Source: Candidatus Heimdallarchaeota archaeon (GTDB lineage Archaea > Asgardarchaeota > Heimdallarchaeia > JABLTI01). From it: a stretch of 11,459 nt of DNA. The translations under genes and the position numbers were made by a program. Under the pieces are notes generated by a model, which did not search any database, was not told the origin of the DNA, and worked only from the letters and a program-made list of their open reading frames with translations. Of the stretch, positions 215 through 11,459 are shown one piece after another. The stretch is from NCBI GenBank assembly GCA_019058275.1, contig JAHLVW010000005.1, positions 1 to 11,459 on the forward strand. The letters are read 5' to 3'. The first letter of the stretch is position 1, and the number at the start of each line of letters is the position of its first letter.

Positions 215-1573
215 CTATATTTTAGGTTTAATGTATTCCTTATCCATTAATAGCTTGGTTAAATCTCGAGAATATTTGATTCGTTCTTCAACCATCTTGT
301 ATAGTTCTTTTTCTTCCATTTCAACTCGAGCAATACCTTGTTCAATAGCTTTCATACCGACTGCTGTAGCTTCGTTTGGATAAACTTCCCACTGATCCAT
401 CTTAGGAATAACATATTCATTAGTTAGACCTTTCTTCTCAGCAACAGCTGTTAAAGCATGAGCAGCTGCTATACACATTTCATCAGTAATTGTTTTAGCA
501 TGAACGTCAAGAGCTCCACGGAAAATAGCTGGGAAACCTAAGCTATTGTTTACCTGGTTTGGGAAATCACTTCTACCTGTACCAATAACCTTCGCGCCTG
601 CTTCCTTTGCATCCCAAGGCCAAATTTCAGGCAATGGGTTTGCATTAGCAAAAACTATAGAATCCTTAGCCATATGTGAAATCCATTCTTTCTTTAGAGT
701 TCCTGGTTCAGATCTAGAAGCAGATATGATAACATCAGCTCCTTTTGTTGCTACACCAAAATCACCAGTTAACCCCTCAACATTGGTTTTTTGAGCTAGA
801 TCATATTTGAAAGTATCATAGTCCTTTTTTTCAACTATATCTGGACGATCTTTAACTGCAATTCCTTTTGAATCACACATAATAATATTTTTAGGGTCAA
901 TTCCAGCAGCTATTAACAAATAAGCTGTTCTTGTATTTGCAGAACCTATTCCTAGCATTGCTATTTTTACTTGATCCAATTCCTTACCTACAAATCTCAA
1001 AGCACCTAAAACACCTGCTAAAACAACAGTTGCCGTACCTTGAGCGTCATCATGAAAAACAGGAATTTCTACTTCAGGATCATTTCGCAATGTCTCAAGT
1101 ACTTTATAACATTTAGGTTTTGAAATATCTTCTAAATTAATACCACCAAAAGATGGTTGAATTAATTTGACAGTCCTAATTATATCTTCAGGATCTTTAG
1201 TATCCAAACAAATAGGAACAGCATCTACACCACCCAGATACTTGAACAGAAGACTCTTGCCTTCCATAACAGGCATTGCTGCTTCAGGACCAATATCACC
1301 TAAACCCAATACTCGAGTTCCATCAGAAACAACTGCAACAAGATTAGACTTATTTGTGTGCTTGTAAACTTCTTCCTTATTTTTCTTAATAGCTAAACAT
1401 GGAGCAGCAACTCCAGGAGTATACCAGATGCTAAAAGCATCAAATCCCCAAATCGAGCATTTAGGAACAGTTTGCATCTTTCCTTGATAATAAGGATGAA
1501 GTTTCATAGCTATTCCAGCAGGTTTCTTTGCTTTCTCAAGTAATTCTTCTTTAGTAACCTTTTTCTCAATCAT
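215..1573 (-). CDS. mae: NAD(P)-dependent malic enzyme (malate dehydrogenase, decarboxylating)
   Basis: 452 aa with family motifs [34 protein letters not shown], FHDDxQGT, GIGSA, DSKG, ANPLPEI and [25 protein letters not shown]. Confidence 0.97.
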
Positions 1574-1707: not shown

Positions 1708-1764
1708 AGATAAGAGAAACAAAAAAAATGCTAGGATTACTTGTCGAGGTAGCCTAGCCTGGTT

Positions 1765-1795
1765 TCGGATGTCCACGCGTGTTCATTCGCCGGAA
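1765..1795 (+). other. 31-nt non-canonical tRNA intron in the D loop (about position 20a/21)
   Basis: BHB: central helix CTGG(1759-1762)/CCGG(1790-1793), bulges TT^T (1763-1765) and AA^T (1794-1796), inner helix CGGATG(1766-1771)/CATTCG(1784-1789). Removal restores a normal-sized D loop. Confidence 0.85.
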
Positions 1796-1812
1796 TGGGC
1801 GCCTGACTCATA

Positions 1813-1849
1813 ATCAGATCGAAAAAGTTAGGGCCAGATTTGATGGGAC
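1813..1849 (+). other. 37-nt canonical 37/38 tRNA intron
   Basis: BHB: central helix CTCA(1807-1810)/TGGG(1844-1847), bulges TA^A (1811-1813) and AC^A (1848-1850), inner helix TCAGATC(1814-1820)/GATTTGA(1837-1843). The outer helix is the anticodon stem. Confidence 0.92.
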
Positions 1850-1850
1850 A

Positions 1851-2036
1851 TCAGGAGGTCGCGGGATCAAAGCCCGCCCTCGACACCAATTCTTTATTAG
1901 GTTTAACACGGTTTAAACCCACCTTAGACACTAAGGAGGCAGGAGAATCCTTTGACTCTGTCGGGTTAGAAATCATTTCCAAATTATGTTTGAAACCGCG
2001 TTTCGGCATGTTTTTAGTATTGGTTTTTGAATTCAT
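1851..2036 (-). CDS. 61-aa ORF overlapping the tRNA 3' exon antisense; candidate Int(N) fragment of a split (SSV-type) tyrosine integrase
   Basis: ATG at 2036 overlaps the upstream gene. The frame runs through the tRNA acceptor and T arm (LVSRAGFDPATS*). No catalytic motifs are present, so the call rests on geometry only. Confidence 0.45.
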   Translation of the reverse strand: MNSKTNTKNMPKRGFKHNLEMISNPTESKDSPASLVSKVGLNRVKPNKELVSRAGFDPATS

Positions 2037-2376
2037 TTAATTTTTCTTCCTTATTTCTTGGTCTATGAAGAAAATCCCATAAAATAGCTGCTTTTGAAAT
2101 GCTTTTATCATAACAATCAGCTTTGAGATTTTTCATCGATGGTTTAGGTGGAACTTTCTTTTGATGAGAATTACGTTCTGTAAACCAATCTAGGAAATAG
2201 CTGGTAATAGCTAAAACCTCTTCTTTGGTGTTAGCAATATATCCTCCACCACCACTATGAGAACCAAACTTTTTATCGCATCTTATAGAATATTTGGCTA
2301 TAGTAGATGGCTTGATTTGTATTGAATAAAGAATTTTAGTCATATGAGTAAACTCATCTTTTCTTACCTGAAACAA
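2014..2376 (-). CDS. hypothetical basic protein (120 aa; alternative start ATG 2343)
   Basis: Overlaps both neighbours in the coupled array. No recognised motif. Confidence 0.7.
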   Translation of the reverse strand: MFQVRKDEFTHMTKILYSIQIKPSTIAKYSIRCDKKFGSHSGGGGYIANTKEEVLAITSYFLDWFTERNSHQKKVPPKPSMKNLKADCYDKSISKAAILWDFLHRPRNKEEKLNEFKNQY

Positions 2377-3937
2377 TCATTTCTTTTTCAATCTGAAAGA
2401 GCTCATTATTCTTCAGAGTGTAATCATTAAGAATAGCAGCTGCTTTATCTGCATCAGACCAGATTTTATTCAATAATTCAGCAACTTCAGATTCATTAGA
2501 TGCAGCACGACAGACCTTTTGAACAGTAATTTCTTTGGGAACATTTCTATCCCTAAGCATTTGATTAAAACGTGCTTGGGTCCAGATCTCAATATTTCTT
2601 CTTGCAGCATATTCAGCCACAGAAAGAGTCTCATCACCAAGCTTAATTTTTTCATTACTAAAAGAAGAAGCTGCAAAAATTGGTACTATACCGGACTTAA
2701 TAACTCTACCTCTTTGAGAATCAGTTCCAAAAGCCTTACTCCAACGAAGGACTTCAAAGAAATCATCGAGAGTTTTCTTGGAAACAAGAGACCATTTAGC
2801 CTCGAGAACATAGATAGTTGGAGATTTAGCAAACATGGTAGGTGAAACTTCCCAAACACGATCAACTTCAGCATTTTGCCTGCGATCGCCAACTGATTTA
2901 ATTAAATGCAAAGTGATCCTCCGGGGATGCATGCCTCTCTTAGAAATTAGAGGATCAAGAGCAGCTTTCCTAATATGGTCCTGGGTCCAGAAAGTAACAT
3001 CTCTAGTAAATTTATCAACAAACCAGCCAACGACTGCTTCCCAATTATGGCCTAACCGGTTATATCTTCCAGCAACTTTTCGAAGCCAATTTCCCTTAAG
3101 ATTGATTTGAGCTTGTAATTGCTTTTCATCAATTAGGGTAGAATCATAATAGAATAGAAAACGATTAAAGATCCTAACTGTTTTGAAATGAGGATAAAGC
3201 TCTAAACAACGTTTCAAAGCATAATCTAAAGTTTCTCGAGAAACATCAAGAAGATTATCCAGGTAAAAACGAGCTGTAATTTCCCTTCGGTGAGAATTAC
3301 TAAGAATGGCATCATGAAGCCTGTAAATTCGTTGCAGCAAAGGATTTTCACTAGATCTATCCTGTAGTCTTTTTTCAGTTCGTTCAAGAGCCTCTTCAAT
3401 AGCTTCTCGAATAGGTTTATCTGAATCTAAGAAGGTAATTAAAAAACCCTCACGAAAAGGAGATTCTCTTTCAACATGATGATAGCCACGGACAAAACAC
3501 ATTCGTTTCTTCTCCATTTTGCGGATAGTAGGCATAATATTATGAATCTTAATAGCATGATCTTTCAAAGCTTCAACAATTTCTCGAGAATAGAAAGCCC
3601 GATCTTTGTTCTCAAGAATGAATTCTCTTATCTTTTGAGCTTGATTAATCTTTGAAGGAAGATGTTCTGGTATTAATTCAAAGTCAGCTGTAATGTTCTC
3701 TGGAAGAGTATAAAGATAATAATGCCTGGTATTCCTGGTCCTGCCACGACGACCTCGATGTTGATAATCAATCTCAGAGATTCGTTTTTTAGAACGTGCA
3801 AGATTACCATTGTTCCATTGACGAAGGATAGCATCACTAACAATACCAGCATCAAGTGCTAATTCTTGAGAAATCTGTCTAACACTCCTAGGCTTCTTGT
3901 CTTCGAGAAGCAAGTAAATTTTTGAGATAGTTTTCAA
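2354..3937 (-). CDS. tandem winged-helix + C-terminal PD-(D/E)XK (restriction-endonuclease-like) nuclease protein, 527 aa
   Basis: HTH-like segments RSVRQISQELALDAGIVSDAILRQWNNGNL and FYSREIVEAL...IMPTIRKMEKK. Nuclease-like core GHNWE...EVDRVW...VLEAKW...LDDF...FAASSFS. TTGA start/stop overlap with the RHH gene. Confidence 0.75.
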   Translation of the reverse strand: MKTISKIYLLLEDKKPRSVRQISQELALDAGIVSDAILRQWNNGNLARSKKRISEIDYQHRGRRGRTRNTRHYYLYTLPENITADFELIPEHLPSKINQAQKIREFILENKDRAFYSREIVEALKDHAIKIHNIMPTIRKMEKKRMCFVRGYHHVERESPFREGFLITFLDSDKPIREAIEEALERTEKRLQDRSSENPLLQRIYRLHDAILSNSHRREITARFYLDNLLDVSRETLDYALKRCLELYPHFKTVRIFNRFLFYYDSTLIDEKQLQAQINLKGNWLRKVAGRYNRLGHNWEAVVGWFVDKFTRDVTFWTQDHIRKAALDPLISKRGMHPRRITLHLIKSVGDRRQNAEVDRVWEVSPTMFAKSPTIYVLEAKWSLVSKKTLDDFFEVLRWSKAFGTDSQRGRVIKSGIVPIFAASSFSNEKIKLGDETLSVAEYAARRNIEIWTQARFNQMLRDRNVPKEITVQKVCRAASNESEVAELLNKIWSDADKAAAILNDYTLKNNELFQIEKEMIVSGKKR

Positions 3938-4140
3938 AGCTCATCAGGGATTTGTTTGGACTCTTTTCTAAAGAGTTCTTTTATTGCTTGTCTGATAAGA
4001 TCAGTCTTATTGCCATAGAGTCCTCGAGCAAGCATTTCATTAGCTTGTTCAGCAGGTTCACCTATAATTGAAATATCAGCTCTAAAAACATCTTTTTTAG
4101 GCAATTGCTTTTTTATTTGAGTTTCAGATTTACTAGCCAA
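3934..4140 (-). CDS. ribbon-helix-helix (CopG/Arc/MetJ-type) DNA-binding protein
   Basis: Beta strand RADISI followed by EQANEMLARGLYGNKTDLIRQAIKELF, matching the G-x-Y-x-(S/N)-x-(S/T)-(E/D)-x-IR-x-A pattern of archaeal RHH proteins. Confidence 0.85.
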   Translation of the reverse strand: MASKSETQIKKQLPKKDVFRADISIIGEPAEQANEMLARGLYGNKTDLIRQAIKELFRKESKQIPDEL

Positions 4141-4142
4141 AT

Positions 4143-4391
4143 TTATTTATCAACTCCTTTCTTTTTCACATTACGATTTTGTTCATGCCAAAGCAACCAA
4201 TTAGGACAGAGAGCTTTATTCTCTTTTGTTCTGCCAAAAACTTTGAATAAAGTAGAAATATTACCAACATGATAAGCAATCATCTGACCTTTTTGTTGTT
4301 CTCTAGCTTTTCTTAATTTAAAATCAAATTCTTTGAATAATTTAATTCCTCGATCCTTCAATTGTTGTAATTCCTTAATTTCACTAATCAT
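4143..4391 (-). CDS. hypothetical basic protein (82 aa)
   Basis: Fits the array. Its 3' end carries a GGAG motif upstream of the next gene. Confidence 0.7.
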   Translation of the reverse strand: MISEIKELQQLKDRGIKLFKEFDFKLRKAREQQKGQMIAYHVGNISTLFKVFGRTKENKALCPNWLLWHEQNRNVKKKGVDK

Positions 4392-4418
4392 CTACTCTTC
4401 AAATCCATTTTTTTCTAA

Positions 4419-4562
4419 TCAATCATATCCTGTATCTTCAAGATCATGATTCATCCACCAGTCATCACATGTCTCACAGTAAGACATGTCAAAGCTAGTT
4501 TTCATAGGGTTACCACAAACAGGACAACAATATCCTCTAAAATCATCACTTTCTTCGCTCAT
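4419..4562 (-). CDS. 47-aa CPxCG-type zinc-finger microprotein (not in ORF track)
   Basis: MSEESDDFRGYCCPVCGNPMKTSFDMSYCETCDDWWMNHDLEDTGYD*. ATGA overlap with the upstream stop at 4559-4561. Confidence 0.8.
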   Translation of the reverse strand: MSEESDDFRGYCCPVCGNPMKTSFDMSYCETCDDWWMNHDLEDTGYD

Positions 4563-4786
4563 TTTCTTCCCTCTGTAAAAGTAATAGGTCTCTCTTTTTT
4601 TGCATTATTTAATATTCGAGTAATTTGTCCGATGCAATATGTTGCGTTTGTATTGACAAGCTTTGCTTTCTTCATTTCTTTTCTTAGGACGTCCAGGTTA
4701 AACTTCAGTTCCATGGCTTCATCTATGGATATAATAAATCCTTGTTCCTCAGTTTTGTTTTTTAGATTCTGCATGGTTTTTATCAT
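4559..4786 (-). CDS. hypothetical protein (75 aa)
   Basis: ATG directly follows the upstream TGA, and its stop overlaps the downstream ATG. Confidence 0.7.
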   Translation of the reverse strand: MIKTMQNLKNKTEEQGFIISIDEAMELKFNLDVLRKEMKKAKLVNTNATYCIGQITRILNNAKKERPITFTEGRK

Positions 4787-5128
4787 TCATCCTTCTTTCT
4801 CCTCAAAATCTTCTACTTCATATTGGATAAAATTAGAATTATTTTTCATACTATCCAATATCTCTTTTAATTTGTCATAATCTGCAAGTTGATTATTGTA
4901 TTTTTTGACCAGCAAATTATATTTATCAATTAATTGATTCACTTCTTTTTTCTCTTTTGATTGATTATATTTTTCCGCCAGTCGGTTGTATTCTTCTACA
5001 TTGGTTTTATATTCAGAAAATAAATTATCATAGCATTGTGCTCTCTTATTCATAAATATCAGAGAATAAAAAATATAACCTACCAACATTACTGTTTCTA
5101 TTATCATTATTACATAGCTTGTCATCAT
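4787..5128 (-). CDS. N-terminal membrane anchor + coiled-coil protein (113 aa)
   Basis: Hydrophobic YVIMIIETVMLVGYIFYSLIFM followed by heptad-like repeats EEYNRLA/EKYNQ, DKYNLLV/KKYNNQL/ADYDKLK. Confidence 0.8.
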   Translation of the reverse strand: MMTSYVIMIIETVMLVGYIFYSLIFMNKRAQCYDNLFSEYKTNVEEYNRLAEKYNQSKEKKEVNQLIDKYNLLVKKYNNQLADYDKLKEILDSMKNNSNFIQYEVEDFEEKEG

Positions 5129-5135
5129 TTTCTTA

Positions 5136-5543
5136 TCATCTCCTTTTTTTCTTTAATTCTTCTTTCGTCCCAAGATTTCTTCTCTTATTATCACTCTTCA
5201 CTATCATCTCCAAAAATTCAAGTAACCAACTTACAGAATCTGCTCCAAATAACTTCAGAAATAATAAAGTCAAACATTTATGACAGAAGGACCTTAATTG
5301 TGGATCATGTTCATCTAGAGGTAAATAGATTATTGGTTTCATACATCCACAAGAATAACAAATTCCTTGAATAGTATAAGATCTTAAACGAGAAATCATT
5401 TGATCAATACTCATTAATTGATCTTTACTAAAACCAATTATTCTTGGTTCAACATAATCACTTTTTTTATGGGAAGCAACCTCTTCCATAATTTCTGAAA
5501 ATTTCTTAATTTCTTTGTCAGTTATTTTGATACCATTAATCAA
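5136..5543 (-). CDS. hypothetical zinc-binding protein (135 aa)
   Basis: CYSC...CHKC pair. GGAGGT precedes the TTG start. Confidence 0.75.
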   Translation of the reverse strand: MINGIKITDKEIKKFSEIMEEVASHKKSDYVEPRIIGFSKDQLMSIDQMISRLRSYTIQGICYSCGCMKPIIYLPLDEHDPQLRSFCHKCLTLLFLKLFGADSVSWLLEFLEMIVKSDNKRRNLGTKEELKKKRR

Positions 5544-5545
5544 TG

Positions 5546-5929
5546 TTAAACCTCCAATTTCAAATAGTCGGCTATTCTTGCTTGTCTTGTTATTTGGAAT
5601 TTCTTAAAAGCTAAAGGATCATTCATTCGAGCTGTGAAAACAGAAATATTAACAGAATAGCATTTATCATAACGATTATTTTCAGGATTATATCTATCCC
5701 AGACAAAACATGAAAGATCCTTTTTAGAAATAGAATTAACCATCTGACAATCTTTGCATTGAAAAGCCAAAAGTTTCCCTAAATCAGGAGAATCATAAGA
5801 TCCTAAAAATTGTTGAGATGATCCAAACAAACTATGATGACATAGACATTGAATACTCAAACTATAACCTGTTTTTAAGAAATCTAAAATATCTATTTTT
5901 TTTCTATCTTCATATTCTATAATATTCAT
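5546..5929 (-). CDS. hypothetical zinc-ribbon-like protein (127 aa)
   Basis: CLC...CKDC. GGAGTG precedes the ATG. Confidence 0.75.
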   Translation of the reverse strand: MNIIEYEDRKKIDILDFLKTGYSLSIQCLCHHSLFGSSQQFLGSYDSPDLGKLLAFQCKDCQMVNSISKKDLSCFVWDRYNPENNRYDKCYSVNISVFTARMNDPLAFKKFQITRQARIADYLKLEV

Positions 5930-5932
5930 GTT

Positions 5933-6679
5933 TCAACACTCCAAAATTTTTTGAATAAAAAAATCTATAACAAAAACACCTTTCTGAGAGAAAACATGCT
6001 CAACAGCCCTCCAGGCGGGAACAAATTCTTTGAAAACAAAACTCTCATTATGCGGAAGAATATTACAGAGATAGTGCTCGCCAAAATCATCTAGAATTTT
6101 TAAACAAGCCAACATTTTCTGTTTCTTATTAGTATGAATTTCAAAAGAAAGATTGTTAGGTAAAAATGGCATAGTAGATAGTATCTTATCTTCGTAATTC
6201 TCAGCGTCGATTTTTAGATAGATTGGTTCTTTTTCTGTGAGATTATTGTCACAAAATATTTTTTTGAGAGTAGTTGCTGTTACCTCTCTCGCTTCCTGAT
6301 ATTTATGTCTTTTTTCTTCAAAAAATTCTTGTGAAACAGTAGCAGTAGAAGAAACAGTTCTATCAATATATAATGTTATTTTTCCGTTCTCATTGGAAAC
6401 AGCACAATTAATAATTGATACATTCAAATTTTTCTTGAATTTTTGCTCTAACATTCCGCATATCTCTTTCTGCGGTTCAACAGCAATTACTTTCCTAGCA
6501 TGAAGCATCAACTCTGTCATTGTGCCAATATGAGCTCCTATGTCTATACAGGTCGTTTCCGAATCAATTGTTCTCTTGTAAAATTTCTTCAGCTCTCTTC
6601 TTGCTTTTCCTTTCTTATATGCACGATATATTTTTCTTAGAAAATAATATATTAGATCTGAGAATTTTCCACTCAACAA
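5933..6679 (-). CDS. FkbM-family SAM-dependent methyltransferase
   Basis: Motifs CIDIGAHIG, VIAVEPQ, NCAVSN, LKIDAENYE and FEIH in the order typical of FkbM/Methyltransf_21. Confidence 0.92.
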   Translation of the reverse strand: MLSGKFSDLIYYFLRKIYRAYKKGKARRELKKFYKRTIDSETTCIDIGAHIGTMTELMLHARKVIAVEPQKEICGMLEQKFKKNLNVSIINCAVSNENGKITLYIDRTVSSTATVSQEFFEEKRHKYQEAREVTATTLKKIFCDNNLTEKEPIYLKIDAENYEDKILSTMPFLPNNLSFEIHTNKKQKMLACLKILDDFGEHYLCNILPHNESFVFKEFVPAWRAVEHVFSQKGVFVIDFFIQKILEC

Positions 6680-6683
6680 TCAT

Positions 6684-6830
6684 TCACTCCAATAAGTTCA
6701 TACAATACTCACACCAATGCTTCGGTTCAGGATAACCAATATTATCTTGAGAGCAGGAACAACAGAGATCTCGTTCACCAGGTAGAATGTTTTTGCAGAT
6801 GTTAGTGCAGGCACAGCATTCATTTGTCAT
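6684..6830 (-). CDS. 48-aa Cys-rich metal-binding microprotein (not in ORF track)
   Basis: MTNECCACTNICKNILPGERDLCCSCSQDNIGYPEPKHWCEYCMNLLE*, 9 Cys. It fills the gap between the nuclease and FkbM genes. Confidence 0.7.
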   Translation of the reverse strand: MTNECCACTNICKNILPGERDLCCSCSQDNIGYPEPKHWCEYCMNLLE

Positions 6831-7404
6831 GGTCTCCACGTTTTAGTTCAGGAATAAAATCAGCTAATGAGGATCCAACTACAATAGGATCTGGTTGGAT
6901 TTCTAGGTCCCATAATTTATCGATTATTCTTTGTTTGAAGTCTTTATGTGGTGGATGGATTTTATGTTGAACAGCTCTATGAACATGAAGTACTGCTTTT
7001 GCTATAGTATCATAAAACAAAACACCAAGACCAAATTTCTCAATCATACTGAAATATCTGCCATAATTATGAATTAAATAAGCAGCATCAAAATTATATC
7101 TAAGTGGAAATGCAAAATAACAATAATCAAACCAAATTCTCCTAACATTAGCTTGAGCTAATACTTTCTTGAAATCAGACATTTTCACTTCAATAGAATA
7201 GAGAGTGTATTTGTTAGTCCGCTTGTGTTTGTAACCCGCTACAATATCAAATTCATGAATATTATCTCTTAAACAAAAACGTATCTTATGATTAGTACCA
7301 GTATTTTCAATATGTCTCATAAGCCAATCAGCAAAGAACTGATAGAAGTGAAATTCACTATTGGGATTTTCTTTCTGCTCTTCAACAAATTCATCGGAAA
7401 CCAT
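6820..7404 (-). CDS. PD-(D/E)XK superfamily nuclease (194 aa)
   Basis: E...EFDIVAG...YSIEVK-x8-QA...FDYCYFAFP...GLGVL, i.e. the D...ExK...Q catalytic arrangement. Confidence 0.8.
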   Translation of the reverse strand: MVSDEFVEEQKENPNSEFHFYQFFADWLMRHIENTGTNHKIRFCLRDNIHEFDIVAGYKHKRTNKYTLYSIEVKMSDFKKVLAQANVRRIWFDYCYFAFPLRYNFDAAYLIHNYGRYFSMIEKFGLGVLFYDTIAKAVLHVHRAVQHKIHPPHKDFKQRIIDKLWDLEIQPDPIVVGSSLADFIPELKRGDHDK

Positions 7405-7406
7405 AG

Positions 7407-7718
7407 TTACTCCACCAATCTTTTGAAAATTCTATCGAATAATTCAGACCATTCAATTTTGTTAATCTCTTCCCGGACTATTTGCTCTAAATCATTTTTA
7501 ACATCAAGTTCAGAATCAAACTCAAAATCTGTTTTCGATATGTCATCACTTTTTTGAACAAACAATTTCAGAAGTTTATCCTGATCTTTTTTACCTTGCC
7601 AAAAACTCTTTCTAGAAAATTTGACATAGCAACCAAATGAAAGAGTGAATTTTTCTTCCCTGGAGTCTTTCTCATTTGATGCAAAATCAATTAGTGATTG
7701 TTCTTTTGAAGACATCAT
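7407..7718 (-). CDS. hypothetical protein (103 aa)
   Basis: ATGA overlap with the upstream stop, preceded by GAGGT. Confidence 0.75.
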   Translation of the reverse strand: MMSSKEQSLIDFASNEKDSREEKFTLSFGCYVKFSRKSFWQGKKDQDKLLKLFVQKSDDISKTDFEFDSELDVKNDLEQIVREEINKIEWSELFDRIFKRLVE

Positions 7719-8728
7719 TTCAACCTCATAGATTCAACTCTTTCGCGAGAAATGTGATCTTTTGTCTTATCAGCAATAACATAAGATTTAGCAAAAAAGA
7801 TCCAAGTCCCTCGTTTCAAAAGACGATTCTTTTTCTCCTGCCTTTTTATTCTTCTTTCATGGGCTCGTTTCAAATGGTCATTCCAGTATAATTGATCATA
7901 ATACCAAGAATTAGGATTTTGAAGAACTTTGCAACTATAGCACCCATTGGTCCATTGACTAAAGAATGATTTATCTTTACAATAAGGACAAATAAAGAAT
8001 TGATCATCTCTAATCTTTTTCCTGGCAAATTTTAAGAAAAATTTCCTCCAGAAGGGTCTAATCTTTGTAACTGGGATATGAGAGCCATTCCGTAACTCAA
8101 TAAGATCATAATAGTAAAGATATTCAGGTTGTTTGTTTTTCAGAAGATGTTCTTGGGACCACAAATAGGACCTTAACGATTCTGTAATACAATTATATTC
8201 TTGAGAGATCCTACTTTCAACACGTTCAATAGATCGACATGTGCTAGCCAATCGATCTCTAATTCTCTGCTGCACAAACTGTCCAAGTAGTTCAGGATCT
8301 TGTTGTAAAAGAAATTCTTGCCGGTCCCAAAATTGATTAACTTCAAAACCATCTTTAATGATATAATCTAAATTGTAAATCTTCTGTAATGCTCGAGGTA
8401 TTTGATAAATTTGACCTACACCTAATCGAGGGAGAAGATTATCAATTCTTTTTCTCACAACAGTAATTGCTTTTCTTTTCCTACAATAAAAACAAGTGAG
8501 ATAGACATCTTCAATATTGAGACAATTGCAACAATAAACTCCTGAAAGATCAAGAAATCTTGAAAGATCAGTGAGGAGATTGCAATGGGAATTGCATCGC
8601 ATACAAATACCTGCAGAAAGATAAGCTGTGATAAAATCCTCACGGTATTTCTCAAATGAGATTATTCCAAGAACATGATCTAAAGGATCAGCACTCTTCA
8701 GCAATTCTTGTTGGATGAAATTAGTCAA
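7715..8728 (-). CDS. multi-zinc-finger hypothetical protein (337 aa)
   Basis: CMRC, CCNC and CFYC near the N-terminus, CPYC...CYSC later, basic C-terminus. GGAGG precedes the TTG start. Confidence 0.8.
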   Translation of the reverse strand: MTNFIQQELLKSADPLDHVLGIISFEKYREDFITAYLSAGICMRCNSHCNLLTDLSRFLDLSGVYCCNCLNIEDVYLTCFYCRKRKAITVVRKRIDNLLPRLGVGQIYQIPRALQKIYNLDYIIKDGFEVNQFWDRQEFLLQQDPELLGQFVQQRIRDRLASTCRSIERVESRISQEYNCITESLRSYLWSQEHLLKNKQPEYLYYYDLIELRNGSHIPVTKIRPFWRKFFLKFARKKIRDDQFFICPYCKDKSFFSQWTNGCYSCKVLQNPNSWYYDQLYWNDHLKRAHERRIKRQEKKNRLLKRGTWIFFAKSYVIADKTKDHISRERVESMRLK

Positions 8729-8867
8729 GCTCGTTTTCCTCCTTCTTTGTTTGATTAGAATTACTAAACCAGATTCTCTTTAATGCAAAAAATGCATTAA
8801 TTGTCCAACATAGAGTATATGGAATAAAATAACATAATAGGATTAAAGCCACTAGAGGAATTTTCAC
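8721..8867 (-). CDS. 48-aa single-pass membrane microprotein (not in ORF track)
   Basis: GTG start overlaps the upstream TGA, with GGAGG upstream. MKIPLVALILLCYFIPYTLCWTINAFFALKRIWFSNSNQTKKEENELD*. Confidence 0.75.
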   Translation of the reverse strand: MKIPLVALILLCYFIPYTLCWTINAFFALKRIWFSNSNQTKKEENELD

Positions 8868-9265
8868 AGTAAATCCTCCTTTGGTTCATGATCATTACAA
8901 ATCAATTCTGCTACTTCATCGTAAAGATTAGTTCCATGAAGACCACATTCAAGAAGCTCATCTTCTATAATTATGGCATGCTCGCAATTGTAACACGTAG
9001 GTTTCTTAGTTTTTATTTTGACAAGTATCAAAAGTAATAATGCAGCAATAACAGAGGAGAAATTTAAGCAAATGGAAATTAGATGGTAATTTAGTAAGCC
9101 AAAAGGTATACTAAGAATCGAGGTAATAAACAAAATGGTAAAGATTAGTAATGCAGATAATGATGCTTTCCGTCCTTTGAGTAAGAAACCAAATAGGATT
9201 ATAACCAGTACGAATATAATGAGATTTATTGAAGAACTAATGTAAGATAGGAATTCCAAGTTCAA
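8864..9265 (-). CDS. three-TM membrane protein with C-terminal Cys/His cluster (133 aa)
   Basis: Three hydrophobic segments, then CYNCEH...CGLH...CNDH. TTGA overlap, with GGAGG upstream. Confidence 0.8.
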   Translation of the reverse strand: MNLEFLSYISSSINLIIFVLVIILFGFLLKGRKASLSALLIFTILFITSILSIPFGLLNYHLISICLNFSSVIAALLLLILVKIKTKKPTCYNCEHAIIIEDELLECGLHGTNLYDEVAELICNDHEPKEDLL

Positions 9266-9765
9266 TAGTAATCCTCCCGGTAATCCGGATAATCAGGTTG
9301 ATTTTCTACCCATATATCATAGGCAAGATCACTATCATCACCATCTGGTGCAGGTGGTAGTTGATCTGTAATATAATCATGGCACCAGCCACAGACTTTC
9401 TTAAGATCACCATGGTCGTCATTCATGCCTTTAGGCCATGTGGACCAGAGATACCTGAGATCTGTTTTAATTTCGTGTAATTCCTTGGACCATTTGTAGC
9501 AGATAGGACATTGTTGTAAGCCTTGTTGTTGAAGCCATTTAGCTATTTGCTCTTTGGTTTTCTTTCTGTTGAAAGTCCATTGGACCAAATTAAAAAGTAA
9601 TTCAAGATCAATAAGTAGATCTTCAGCATCAATTACTCCTAGTCCTGCTCGTAAACCATTCAATCCTAAAATCATAGAATTAACTAGTTTTTTCGCTGAT
9701 TCAGGAGAAGACTGTAAACCCTGTTTTAATTGATCCATCTGTTTTTGTAAGTCATCGAAGATCAT
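9262..9765 (-). CDS. hypothetical zinc-binding protein with acidic tail (167 aa)
   Basis: CPIC...CGWC. ATGA overlap, with GGAGGT upstream. Confidence 0.8.
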   Translation of the reverse strand: MIFDDLQKQMDQLKQGLQSSPESAKKLVNSMILGLNGLRAGLGVIDAEDLLIDLELLFNLVQWTFNRKKTKEQIAKWLQQQGLQQCPICYKWSKELHEIKTDLRYLWSTWPKGMNDDHGDLKKVCGWCHDYITDQLPPAPDGDDSDLAYDIWVENQPDYPDYREDYY

Positions 9766-10229
9766 TTAATCTGGACCTCCTCTTCTTCATCAGGACGATG
9801 AATAATGACTTGAAAAAAAGTATCGAAAGTTCGAGTGCTACATTTGGGATTCTTGCATTCAGCATAGCAATACCAATATTCTAATCCTTCAGGATCAAGT
9901 CCATCGCCAAAGTCTTCGAATTCGATACTATCAATTTTCCCTTCCTTCTTACAGAAAGGACAGTGAACTTTAATGTTCCAAGCATCAGCTAATTCTTTTA
10001 CTTCTGCTGCTTCCTTTCGTCGCTTTGGTTCAGTGATCGTTTTTGTATAATAGTGAATGGATTTCAAATAATCAGTCACTGCTTCAGGTATTGATACATC
10101 TTCTTCAAGCATGATGAAAAGATCTCTTTCATAAGCTGCAAATTTCTTAGCAATAGCTGCAAAATCCTTGATCATTTGGTCCTTGTTTGCTTCAATTCGT
10201 TTGATATCATCTTGTCGTTGTATACTCAT
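9762..10229 (-). CDS. hypothetical protein with C-terminal zinc ribbon (155 aa)
   Basis: CPFC...CKNPKC. ATGA overlap, with GGAGGT upstream. Confidence 0.8.
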   Translation of the reverse strand: MSIQRQDDIKRIEANKDQMIKDFAAIAKKFAAYERDLFIMLEEDVSIPEAVTDYLKSIHYYTKTITEPKRRKEAAEVKELADAWNIKVHCPFCKKEGKIDSIEFEDFGDGLDPEGLEYWYCYAECKNPKCSTRTFDTFFQVIIHRPDEEEEVQIK

Positions 10230-10681
10230 TTATCCTGGACCTCCAGAATCGAATATTTAGAAATTAGGATTAAGCTCTTACAAAGACATTTTGTACAAAA
10301 TTTTAGATCTTCTGCAGCACATCCTTTGGGTGCAATCCAACCACATAGAAAACACCAAAAGACTTTTTCTTTTCGTGAAGCTATTTTCTCCATATCTTCA
10401 TTATTCATTGGTCCTTTGATCTCTTTTTGCATAATCTCTTCACAACCACAATATGGACAAACATTAGGTCCTTTAGCAAATTCCTTTCCACATTCTAAAC
10501 AAACCCACTTAGTAGGTCCTGCTTGATTCTTTCTAATTCGGATTATTTTCCTCCAGGCATTTTTTGTAATTGTTTCAACTTCTAGTTCAATATCTAAATC
10601 ATCATCATTGATAATAATCGTATGAACTAAGGATTGTATTTCAGACCCTTTTGGAAAGGGTAAAATTTCCTTTTTACTCAT
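10226..10681 (-). CDS. double zinc-ribbon protein (151 aa from ATG 10681)
   Basis: WVCLECG...CPYCG and WCFLCG...CTKC. Start reassigned to the TAATG overlap preceded by GGAGG. Confidence 0.8.
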   Translation of the reverse strand: MSKKEILPFPKGSEIQSLVHTIIINDDDLDIELEVETITKNAWRKIIRIRKNQAGPTKWVCLECGKEFAKGPNVCPYCGCEEIMQKEIKGPMNNEDMEKIASRKEKVFWCFLCGWIAPKGCAAEDLKFCTKCLCKSLILISKYSILEVQDK

Positions 10682-11457
10682 TAATTCAGATCCTCCTTCC
10701 ATCGCTTGATTTTCTCAAAAGCATCAGCTTTCCAAGAAAGTTTTAGATTATATTTCTCTTTCAAAAGCATGGTTTCATCATAAAAACGAATGTAATCTTC
10801 CTTAGACCAAAGATTCTCTAATTCATAGTTAGCTAATCCACATACCATTGTTGCAGAATCTAGATTATAATTAATCAAATCCTGAACAATCTCAGGAGTA
10901 GGTTTCAATGGTGGTTCTATGCTGGCAAAAATCTTATGACCTAATTTCTTAGCTCTAATTAAAGTAGCAATCCTTGTTAGATGGTTGCTACTATTTGGTT
11001 CATATTTTTCTTTTTCTTTGGATGATAATCTACCGGTAATTGATAGACCAATGATGTGTTTATCTGGATTAAAGAAATTAAGATAACGAATGATCTTTGC
11101 ATTTTTGGTGATAAATAATACCCAATTATTTTGTAAAAGTTGCAGCCATTGTTTGAATATCTGGAAAAACCTTTGTGATTCAAAAAAGATATCCTGAAAG
11201 GGATCAGTCATATTACTGGCAATAATGACAGCATTGGATGGAAGAAATGGTAATTCTTTGACAATCAACTCGAGAGCATTTTTACAAAACTCTATTTTAT
11301 GGAATACTCCAGATTTAGGACCCCAATTTCTGAAATTTTCCTTTTCATATTTGTATTTAACCCAACAATAGAGGCAATTATTACCACAACCTTTTGTTAA
11401 ACTACAGCCAATAAAAATTGGTTCAAAACCAACTATCTCCTTGACTTCATCAATCCA
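10681..11457 (-). CDS. radical SAM protein, spore-photoproduct-lyase-like / DUF5131-like; 5' end outside the window
   Basis: The frame stays open upstream of the track's TTG (11268) to the window edge and contains GCGNNCLYC (CxxxCxxC, 11365-11388), then SNMTDPFQ, ITKN, GLSITG, EPNSS...R...L and FASIEP. Confidence 0.85.
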   Translation of the reverse strand, partial: WIDEVKEIVGFEPIFIGCSLTKGCGNNCLYCWVKYKYEKENFRNWGPKSGVFHKIEFCKNALELIVKELPFLPSNAVIIASNMTDPFQDIFFESQRFFQIFKQWLQLLQNNWVLFITKNAKIIRYLNFFNPDKHIIGLSITGRLSSKEKEKYEPNSSNHLTRIATLIRAKKLGHKIFASIEPPLKPTPEIVQDLINYNLDSATMVCGLANYELENLWSKEDYIRFYDETMLLKEKYNLKLSWKADAFEKIKRWKEDLN

Positions 11458-11459
11458 AG

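Follow-up and report, generated by a model that had tools for sequence, protein, structure and literature searches.

Integration of a Heimdall-group element into a two-intron tRNA-Met gene very probably split a DpdA/TGT-like gene of the element

A reading frame that ends antisense inside a tRNA gene, at the edge of a long array of genes that all point the same way, raises the question of which gene it came from and what interrupted it. Such a frame, here called ORF61, was found in the window analysed in this work, which is the entire 11,459-bp contig C40 of a 4.12-Mb assembly (33% G+C, 118 contigs); the closest homologues carry the source name "Candidatus Heimdallarchaeota archaeon". According to the original prediction, the genes that follow the tRNA on the right form an integrated element whose attP lies inside one of its own genes, and ORF61 is int(N), the N-terminal fragment that an SSV/pTN3-type tyrosine integrase gene leaves at the tRNA. 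The position of the split and the nature of the fragment were therefore examined separately below, and the features of the locus are collected in Table 1.

Table 1. Features of the locus, with coordinates in the window unless another contig is named.
Feature	Position	Strand	Basis or remark
Host malic enzyme gene, left flank of locus	215..1573	-	Pfam malic E 4e-28, Malic_M E 2e-21
tRNA-Met(CAT), two introns, acts as attL	1743..1888	+	ARAGORN call on spliced 78 nt
ORF61, very probable N-terminal fragment of split DpdA/TGT-like gene	1851..2036	-	61 aa, ATG start, in-frame join with C22
13-bp att core, repeated at other element end	1876..1888	+	C22 copy at synteny break
Left arm of integrated element, 21 co-directional genes	1889..11459	-	ORF list; colinear with NODE_459; runs off contig
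120-aa element protein	2014..2376	-	37% identical to same-position 119-aa protein of NODE_459
527-aa wHTH + nuclease-like protein	2354..3937	-	62% identical to 545-aa protein of NODE_459, 67% to P0029
Ribbon-helix-helix (RHH) protein, coupled to 527-aa gene	3934..4140	-	Pfam RHH_8 E 0.0012
Radical-SAM protein	10681..11457	-	Element left arm
655-aa protein with ParB/Noc-like N-terminal domain and PCNA homologue	C95 (L002) 1829-3796, 4404-5210		

No tRNA was detected in the raw window by ARAGORN or Rfam. Once two introns, at 1765-1795 in the D loop and at 1813-1849 (37/38), had been taken out manually, ARAGORN called the tRNA-Met(CAT), which is 86-93% conserved in 12 relatives. The boundary of its last exon is ambiguous because ATCAG is repeated. 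Orthologues of the malic enzyme gene on the left adjoin the same tRNA in the relatives G005, G008, and G009 and in the Heimdall MAG GCA_014730365.1. On the other side, ORF61 overlaps the upstream gene for the 120-aa protein by 23 nt, and its last 12 codons are antisense to 1851-1888, a stretch that spans the CCA end, the acceptor 3' strand, the T arm, and the variable region; both the overlap and the antisense run through the tRNA were as the original prediction had described them. The stop codon of ORF61 is a TGA at 1851-1853, where the last exon begins. When 1889-2036 was shuffled by mononucleotides, just 2.6% of the shuffles were free of stops, and two more related elements have the corresponding frame open and in phase; the ORF61 reading frame therefore exceeds chance. 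A database search for longer relatives of ORF61 returned none.

For the att core, a length of about 35 bp (1854-1888) had been anticipated. The 35-mer has no second copy in the assembly (matches of at least 14 nt) or in the window (three mismatches allowed), and only its last 13 bases are repeated. The core is thus shorter than was thought, and it does keep within the last exon and exclude the TGA: the repeat is 1876-1888, which takes in the two final nucleotides of the T stem, the 3' strand of the acceptor, the discriminator, and CCA. The direct repeat that had been proposed as a second att copy was accordingly found as a 13-mer on contig C22 (152343-152355, minus strand), and it recurs at C6:9619-9631 (plus strand). 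These two are the only matches of at least 12 nt to the last exon of the tRNA in the genome, and repeats internal to the window were at chance level. Base composition predicts 0.008 chance occurrences of this particular 13-mer, or 0.26 when every 13-mer of the exon is counted, so that position has to decide whether the C22 copy is an att site. In G008 and G009, orthologues of C22:151723 down to 147591 follow in reverse orientation within 0.9-3.2 kb of the tRNA, which makes the C22 end, read as its reverse complement, the right flank of the locus. The 13-mer on C22 sits exactly between this host flank and the gene for P0002, a protein that was not found in 40 related genomes. Synteny with relatives thus resumes at the C22 repeat, and the array to the right of the tRNA is colinear with the metagenomic contig NODE_459 described below, which bears out its reading as an integrated element.

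Right-arm versions were located at C6 (L001) and at the C22 end (L003 11343-12322). C6 carries an 86%-identical version of the right arm at the C22 end; the host flank beyond the 13-mer is common to both, and over its final 66 bases C6 is identical to C22. At its other end C40 continues into C95 through a 414-bp overlap, with 97% identity rather than 100%. Two variants of the element, or two subpopulations, are probably mixed in the assembly, and the left arm on C40 may pair with either the C22 end or the C6 version. In this fragmented MAG, attL is on one contig and attR on another, and with a repeat of only 13 bp the element is not closed.

When the ends were joined in silico on the coding strand (window 2036 to 1889, the 13-mer, and C22:152356 onwards), a single 367-aa ORF was obtained. 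The frame thus runs on across the junction, as the original prediction had it; the tyrosine recombinase domain that it was expected to enter is replaced by a TGT/DpdA fold. The C-terminal part is P0002 (318 aa), the start of which is overlapped by the 13-bp repeat, and its C6 version, P0001, is 85% identical; neither has a Pfam family or a PF00589 signal. The C fragment matched the NCBIfam DpdA family with an E of 2e-5, at 23 bits against a cut-off of 200, and PHROG 887 (queuine tRNA-ribosyltransferase) with an E of 3e-3. An AF2 model built from a 12-sequence alignment (pLDDT 90.8, pTM 0.86) shows a TGT-type (beta/alpha)8 barrel, in which residues 1-17 of the C fragment, encoded by att, are predicted to be disordered. 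The best 50 of 358 Foldseek matches (E <= 0.001) were all TGT or DpdA, with E 1e-9 to 9e-9 and TM by query 0.50-0.62; bacterial TGT and DpdA 7ui4 were at the top (E 1e-9 to 2e-9, TM 0.55-0.62), and the family profile run against the PDB matched only DpdA 7ui4 (E 0.02). D78 (DSGAA) and D243 (SLD.SNA) are invariant in 12 family members and are aligned to DCGAF and SIDSTTP of 7ui4, motif positions that we take to be those of the catalytic Asp of TGT and DpdA. A scan of the genome contigs with the TGT-like alignment found nothing. As judged from the model, and from profile matches that stay below the NCBIfam cut-off, the split gene is one for a TGT/DpdA-fold transglycosylase and not for a tyrosine recombinase.

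An unsplit homologue of the joined protein, P0003, the nearest one in the databases, is encoded on NODE_459, a 27,080-bp ENA metagenomic contig on which all genes run in one direction. P0003 has 372 aa, about 54 more than P0002, and is 68% identical to P0002 and 66% identical to the C6 version. The gene order on NODE_459 is RHH, 545 aa, 119 aa, 134 aa, P0003, 362 aa, and the matching order here is RHH, 527, 120, ORF61 joined to the TGT-like gene of C22/C6, and 352; besides the values in Table 1, the identities are 45% for the RHH protein and 24% for the 352-aa protein of C6. The remainder of NODE_459 is colinear with C95 and C40. Parts that are split by the chromosome in our genome are therefore contiguous in NODE_459, which has no terminal repeat, so that a free circle is not shown by it. 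No BLASTP similarity was detected between ORF61 and either the N-terminal extension of P0003 or the 134-aa protein. KELV occupies residues 48-51 in ORF61 and 49-52 in P0003, with the same spacing onward to the conserved KETVERKYYP. At the attP position, the P0003 gene carries a different tRNA-like 3' end, the last 12 nt of which are the end of a tRNA 3' half on C48. This lone 3' half at C48 ~36596-36641 (L037) consists of T arm, acceptor strand, and ACCA, has no 5' half nearby, and may be part of a split tRNA gene or an att scar.

The same arrangement was found in a second genome, GCA_014730365.1. On WJIK01000071, the malic enzyme gene is followed by the two-intron tRNA-Met, a 62-aa ORF, the gene for a 530-aa protein (P0029, 67% identical to the 527-aa protein of the window), and the RHH gene. 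The 62-aa counterpart is 43% identical to ORF61 and has the same C-terminal residues; this fragment (L047) has MVNV.LK in common with the N-terminus of P0003 and EM.SNP in common with ORF61. On WJIK01000017, a host aldehyde dehydrogenase gene is followed after 150 bp by the 3' end of the same tRNA, then by the gene for P0004, which is 59% identical to P0002, and by that for a 341-aa homologue of the 352-aa protein. The junctions in this genome share a 28-bp direct repeat made up of 19 nt of the tRNA and 9 nt past CCA, and joining them in silico gave an in-frame ORF of 374 aa. At a third junction of the integrated type, that of P0005, a host gene is again followed by a tRNA-like end, the TGT-like gene, and the gene for a 353-aa protein. 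The element of GCA_014730365.1 also carries, a few kb from its TGT-like gene, a giant ORF of >2,275 aa (L028 14203-20957), which recalls the giant genes of Heimdallarchaeial aloposons (PMC8813620).

Both junctions were observed directly, as were the 13-bp repeat, the reading frame that continues across the join, a relative in which the gene is unsplit, and a second genome of the same arrangement, and we are confident that integration into tRNA-Met(CAT) split a DpdA/TGT-like gene of the element. An element of ~27-30 kb would recombine via a short core consisting of the acceptor 3' strand, the discriminator, and CCA of the tRNA gene. Its attP would lie ~50 codons into the TGT-like gene frame, so that integration would cut the gene in two. 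At attR, the array would begin with the 318-aa catalytic part, the ATG of which would be assembled from an A of the host flank and the TG of the CCA complement; at attL, it would end with ORF61, terminated by the tRNA-derived TGA. That attP lies inside one of the element's own genes had been predicted correctly, as the in-frame joins of 367 and 374 aa and the unsplit 372-aa homologue indicate, and the in-frame join with C22, the homologue, and the second genome likewise bear out ORF61 as the N-terminal fragment left at the tRNA. The N-terminal extension is basic, poorly conserved, and probably unstructured. Its poor conservation, together with the predicted disorder of residues 1-17 in the C fragment, leads us to infer that it is translated in the free form but dispensable; it may be no functional part, given that family members in integrated settings start at att.

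The rival explanation that survives best, to which we give a small chance, is that ORF61 is untranslated and that attP lies in a ~150-nt spacer before the TGT-like gene, in which case no protein is truly split. The real gene start would then be an ATG, TTG, or GTG at the CCA complement, and in each of the four att-proximal genes a start codon does coincide with or adjoin the TGG of this complement. The integrated copies P0004 and P0005 start at or near att, without an extension, more distant members start at or near a conserved HG motif, and both the predicted disorder at the start of the C fragment and the lack of detectable similarity between ORF61 and the P0003 extension would suit a spacer. 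However, three diverged elements have this frame open and in phase, where chance would give 2.6% for each, and the extension is of equal length in ORF61 and P0003, as the two KELV positions show. The fragment in L047 moreover combines a motif of the P0003 extension with one of ORF61, and the ORF overlaps or abuts the upstream gene, like other genes of the array. The reading as int(N) of a "suicidal" SSV/pTN3-type tyrosine integrase, with int(C) at the far end, fits the SSV-family geometry of an attP within an ORF that is disrupted on integration (PMC7253208, PMC8371274), the ~60-aa N fragment that overlaps the tRNA, and the want of an integrase beside the tRNA, but is very improbable, since the frame enters a TIM-barrel TGT/DpdA-like protein here, in the second genome, and in the unsplit relative, R...HxxR...Y is absent from the joined frame, PF00589 is absent from C40, C95, C37, C6, and the C22 end, and no integrase families were found among the precomputed Pfam matches on the called genes of NODE_459, L028, and L047.

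Splitting of the DpdA/TGT-like gene on integration can be compared with several known systems. In the SSV family, "suicidal" integrases have attP inside the integrase ORF, and the gene is disrupted on integration (PMC7253208, PMC8371274). The present elements resemble SSV1, pTN3, and the TKV elements of that family in that attP is situated in an ORF of the element and overlaps a tRNA in its 3' part, in that a short N fragment reads into the tRNA at one end while a large C fragment lies at the other, and in that different elements carry different tRNA-like sites at the same position of the gene. They differ from them in that the partitioned gene encodes a TGT/DpdA-fold transglycosylase, the catalytic part remains intact and acquires a start codon from the junction, the repeats are short (13 and 28 bp), and no tyrosine recombinase was found in the element DNA examined. 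ORF61 was not filed as int(N) because the catalytic domain of a tyrosine recombinase is absent. The closest precedent is the integration-dependent immunity of mycobacteriophage BPs, in which attP lies in the repressor gene (PMC4557955): as here, attP is inside a non-integrase gene and integration alters the product. In BPs, however, the repressor loses its C-terminal end and a normal tyrosine integrase adjoins, whereas here the enzyme would lose an N-terminal extension.

A third system for comparison is HeimV1, an integrative circular virus-like element of Ca. Heimdallarchaeum endolithica (PMC8813620). By its description, it shares with the present element the host group, a size of ~30 kb, a polycistronic array in one direction, integration at a tRNA, a ParB/Noc-like protein, and one or more DNA methylases. 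It differs in that its description has a recognisable phage-type integrase at the end farther from the tRNA and reports no split gene (PMC8813620). Our element also encodes methyltransferases and many small Cys-rich ORFs, in addition to the proteins in Table 1, and homologues of the RHH gene lie upstream of the homologue of the 527-aa gene in both NODE_459 and L047. A search of 82 other genomes of the class did not turn up the 527-aa protein, and scans of viral contigs with this protein and with P0002 found nothing. By these features it is a HeimV1-like integrative element, probably a provirus, of a Heimdall-group Asgard archaeon.

Of the characterized enzymes compared, DpdA, the DNA preQ0 insertase of the Dpd system, which has phage homologues (PDB 7ui4), is the best match of the split-gene protein in both profile and fold, with the conserved Asp-bearing motifs aligned. 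The setting is also alike, in that the split gene is borne by a mobile element together with a ParB-like and a radical-SAM protein. The two proteins are, however, very distant (12-17% identical, with a profile score far under the family cut-off), and the split-gene protein is shorter. From the similarity to DpdA and the mobile-element context, the TGT-like enzyme would modify the DNA of the element with a 7-deazaguanine-type base. The radical-SAM and ParB/Noc-like proteins could be its partners in this DNA modification; no Que gene was recognised.

Which enzyme carries out the integration was also considered. As predicted, there is no integrase gene beside the tRNA. In the whole genome, PF00589 matches were found only on C55, C5, C9, C20, C36, and C78, and no contig-end overlap was found that would link the element to the tyrosine recombinases of C5, where the contig start truncates the gene, or of C9. 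A 348-aa protein at the link between C6 and C114 was considered as a recombinase and turned out to be a secreted protein. Because no recombinase was found, the integration mechanism is read from the structure of the junctions alone. It is possible, although we hold this only tentatively, that Heimdall elements integrate at tRNAs without a tyrosine or serine recombinase and that the enzyme is of a new kind, for which the 527-aa wHTH + PD-(D/E)xK-like protein would be the first candidate and the TGT-like protein a second, less likely one. Alternatively, the recombinase may be encoded in the unassembled part of the element.

Among the element proteins compared, two stand out as best conserved, the TGT-like protein (59-68% identity) and the 527-aa protein (62-67%). 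The latter belongs to no Pfam, PHROG, or NCBIfam family, and its family profile matched only wHTH in the PDB; the motifs GHNWEA, AEVDR, and KW are invariant in the family. At least 577 relatives with ~42-45% identity occur in Bathyarchaeota, Freyarchaeota, Hadarchaeales, and others. Five distant members (L048-L052), chosen solely for lying on long contigs, were inspected. Upstream of each, at a distance of 128-183 bp, is the end of a tRNA gene in the same orientation, and the five tRNAs have no fewer than three different acceptor stems among them. A position close to a tRNA is typical of integrase genes. No tRNA-derived repeat was found within ~5-6 kb on either side of the members in L048 and L050. 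On this circumstantial evidence, the 527-aa protein is a candidate recombinase, an att-proximal DNA enzyme, or a tRNA-linked module.

The 352-aa family, which in every case comes after the TGT-like gene (L001 7584-8642, minus strand; L027 11130-12218; L028 10968-11993; L004 10856-11698), was also considered as an integrase. It has only 13 relatives in 1.8 billion representatives, and its Pfam matches are to wHTH only. The AF2 model (pLDDT 73.5) consists of a wHTH, a beta-rich domain, and a long coiled coil; Foldseek gave weak TBP-like matches (E ~1e-3), and the VIA-align rows were taken up by the wHTH. No recombinase fold was recognised, although one may be present.

It has been hypothesized that tRNA introns hinder integration (PMC4090602), and the original prediction supposed that the att site bypasses both introns of this tRNA. 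This is so for the present element, since the 13-bp core lies 3' of all introns in the tRNA of the window and in the relatives examined, including a T-arm intron; it does not extend to every element at the same tRNA. The T-arm intron is a third one in the orthologous tRNA-Met of G008 (L022 3355-3543) and G010 (L021 3636-3812), in both of which the 13-bp core is intact. In G005 (L018), a 51-bp partial copy of the 3' part of the tRNA (2827-2973) was seen 1.7 kb downstream, at 4695-4745, with a 293-aa ORF of no assigned family lying between the two. This copy includes 16 nt of intron 2 and keeps the T-stem variant of the window tRNA, not that of the G005 tRNA itself. A probable origin of the copy is a different element that integrated with an att across the intron-exon border and left this scar; other elements would therefore have used att sites that include intron sequence at this tRNA.

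For the intron-protection idea, these results mean that an element needs just the last 13 bases of the tRNA gene, beyond every intron seen in it and in its orthologues in the relatives examined. Gene partition, which has been taken as a hallmark of SSV-family integrases, here affects an enzyme of DNA-modification type, and the partition architecture is therefore not tied to the integrase gene itself. For a provirus family of the Asgard archaea, attL, attR, and predicted attP junctions are now defined, and the elements concerned belong to the archaea that are closest to eukaryotes. Three related elements lack a recognisable integrase, and the 527-aa family is linked to tRNA genes; together these observations provide a concrete candidate for an undescribed archaeal recombinase. 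If either the 527-aa or the TGT-like protein is the recombinase, it would represent a new class of site-specific integrase, and this would explain many of the "integrase-less" islands at archaeal tRNA genes.
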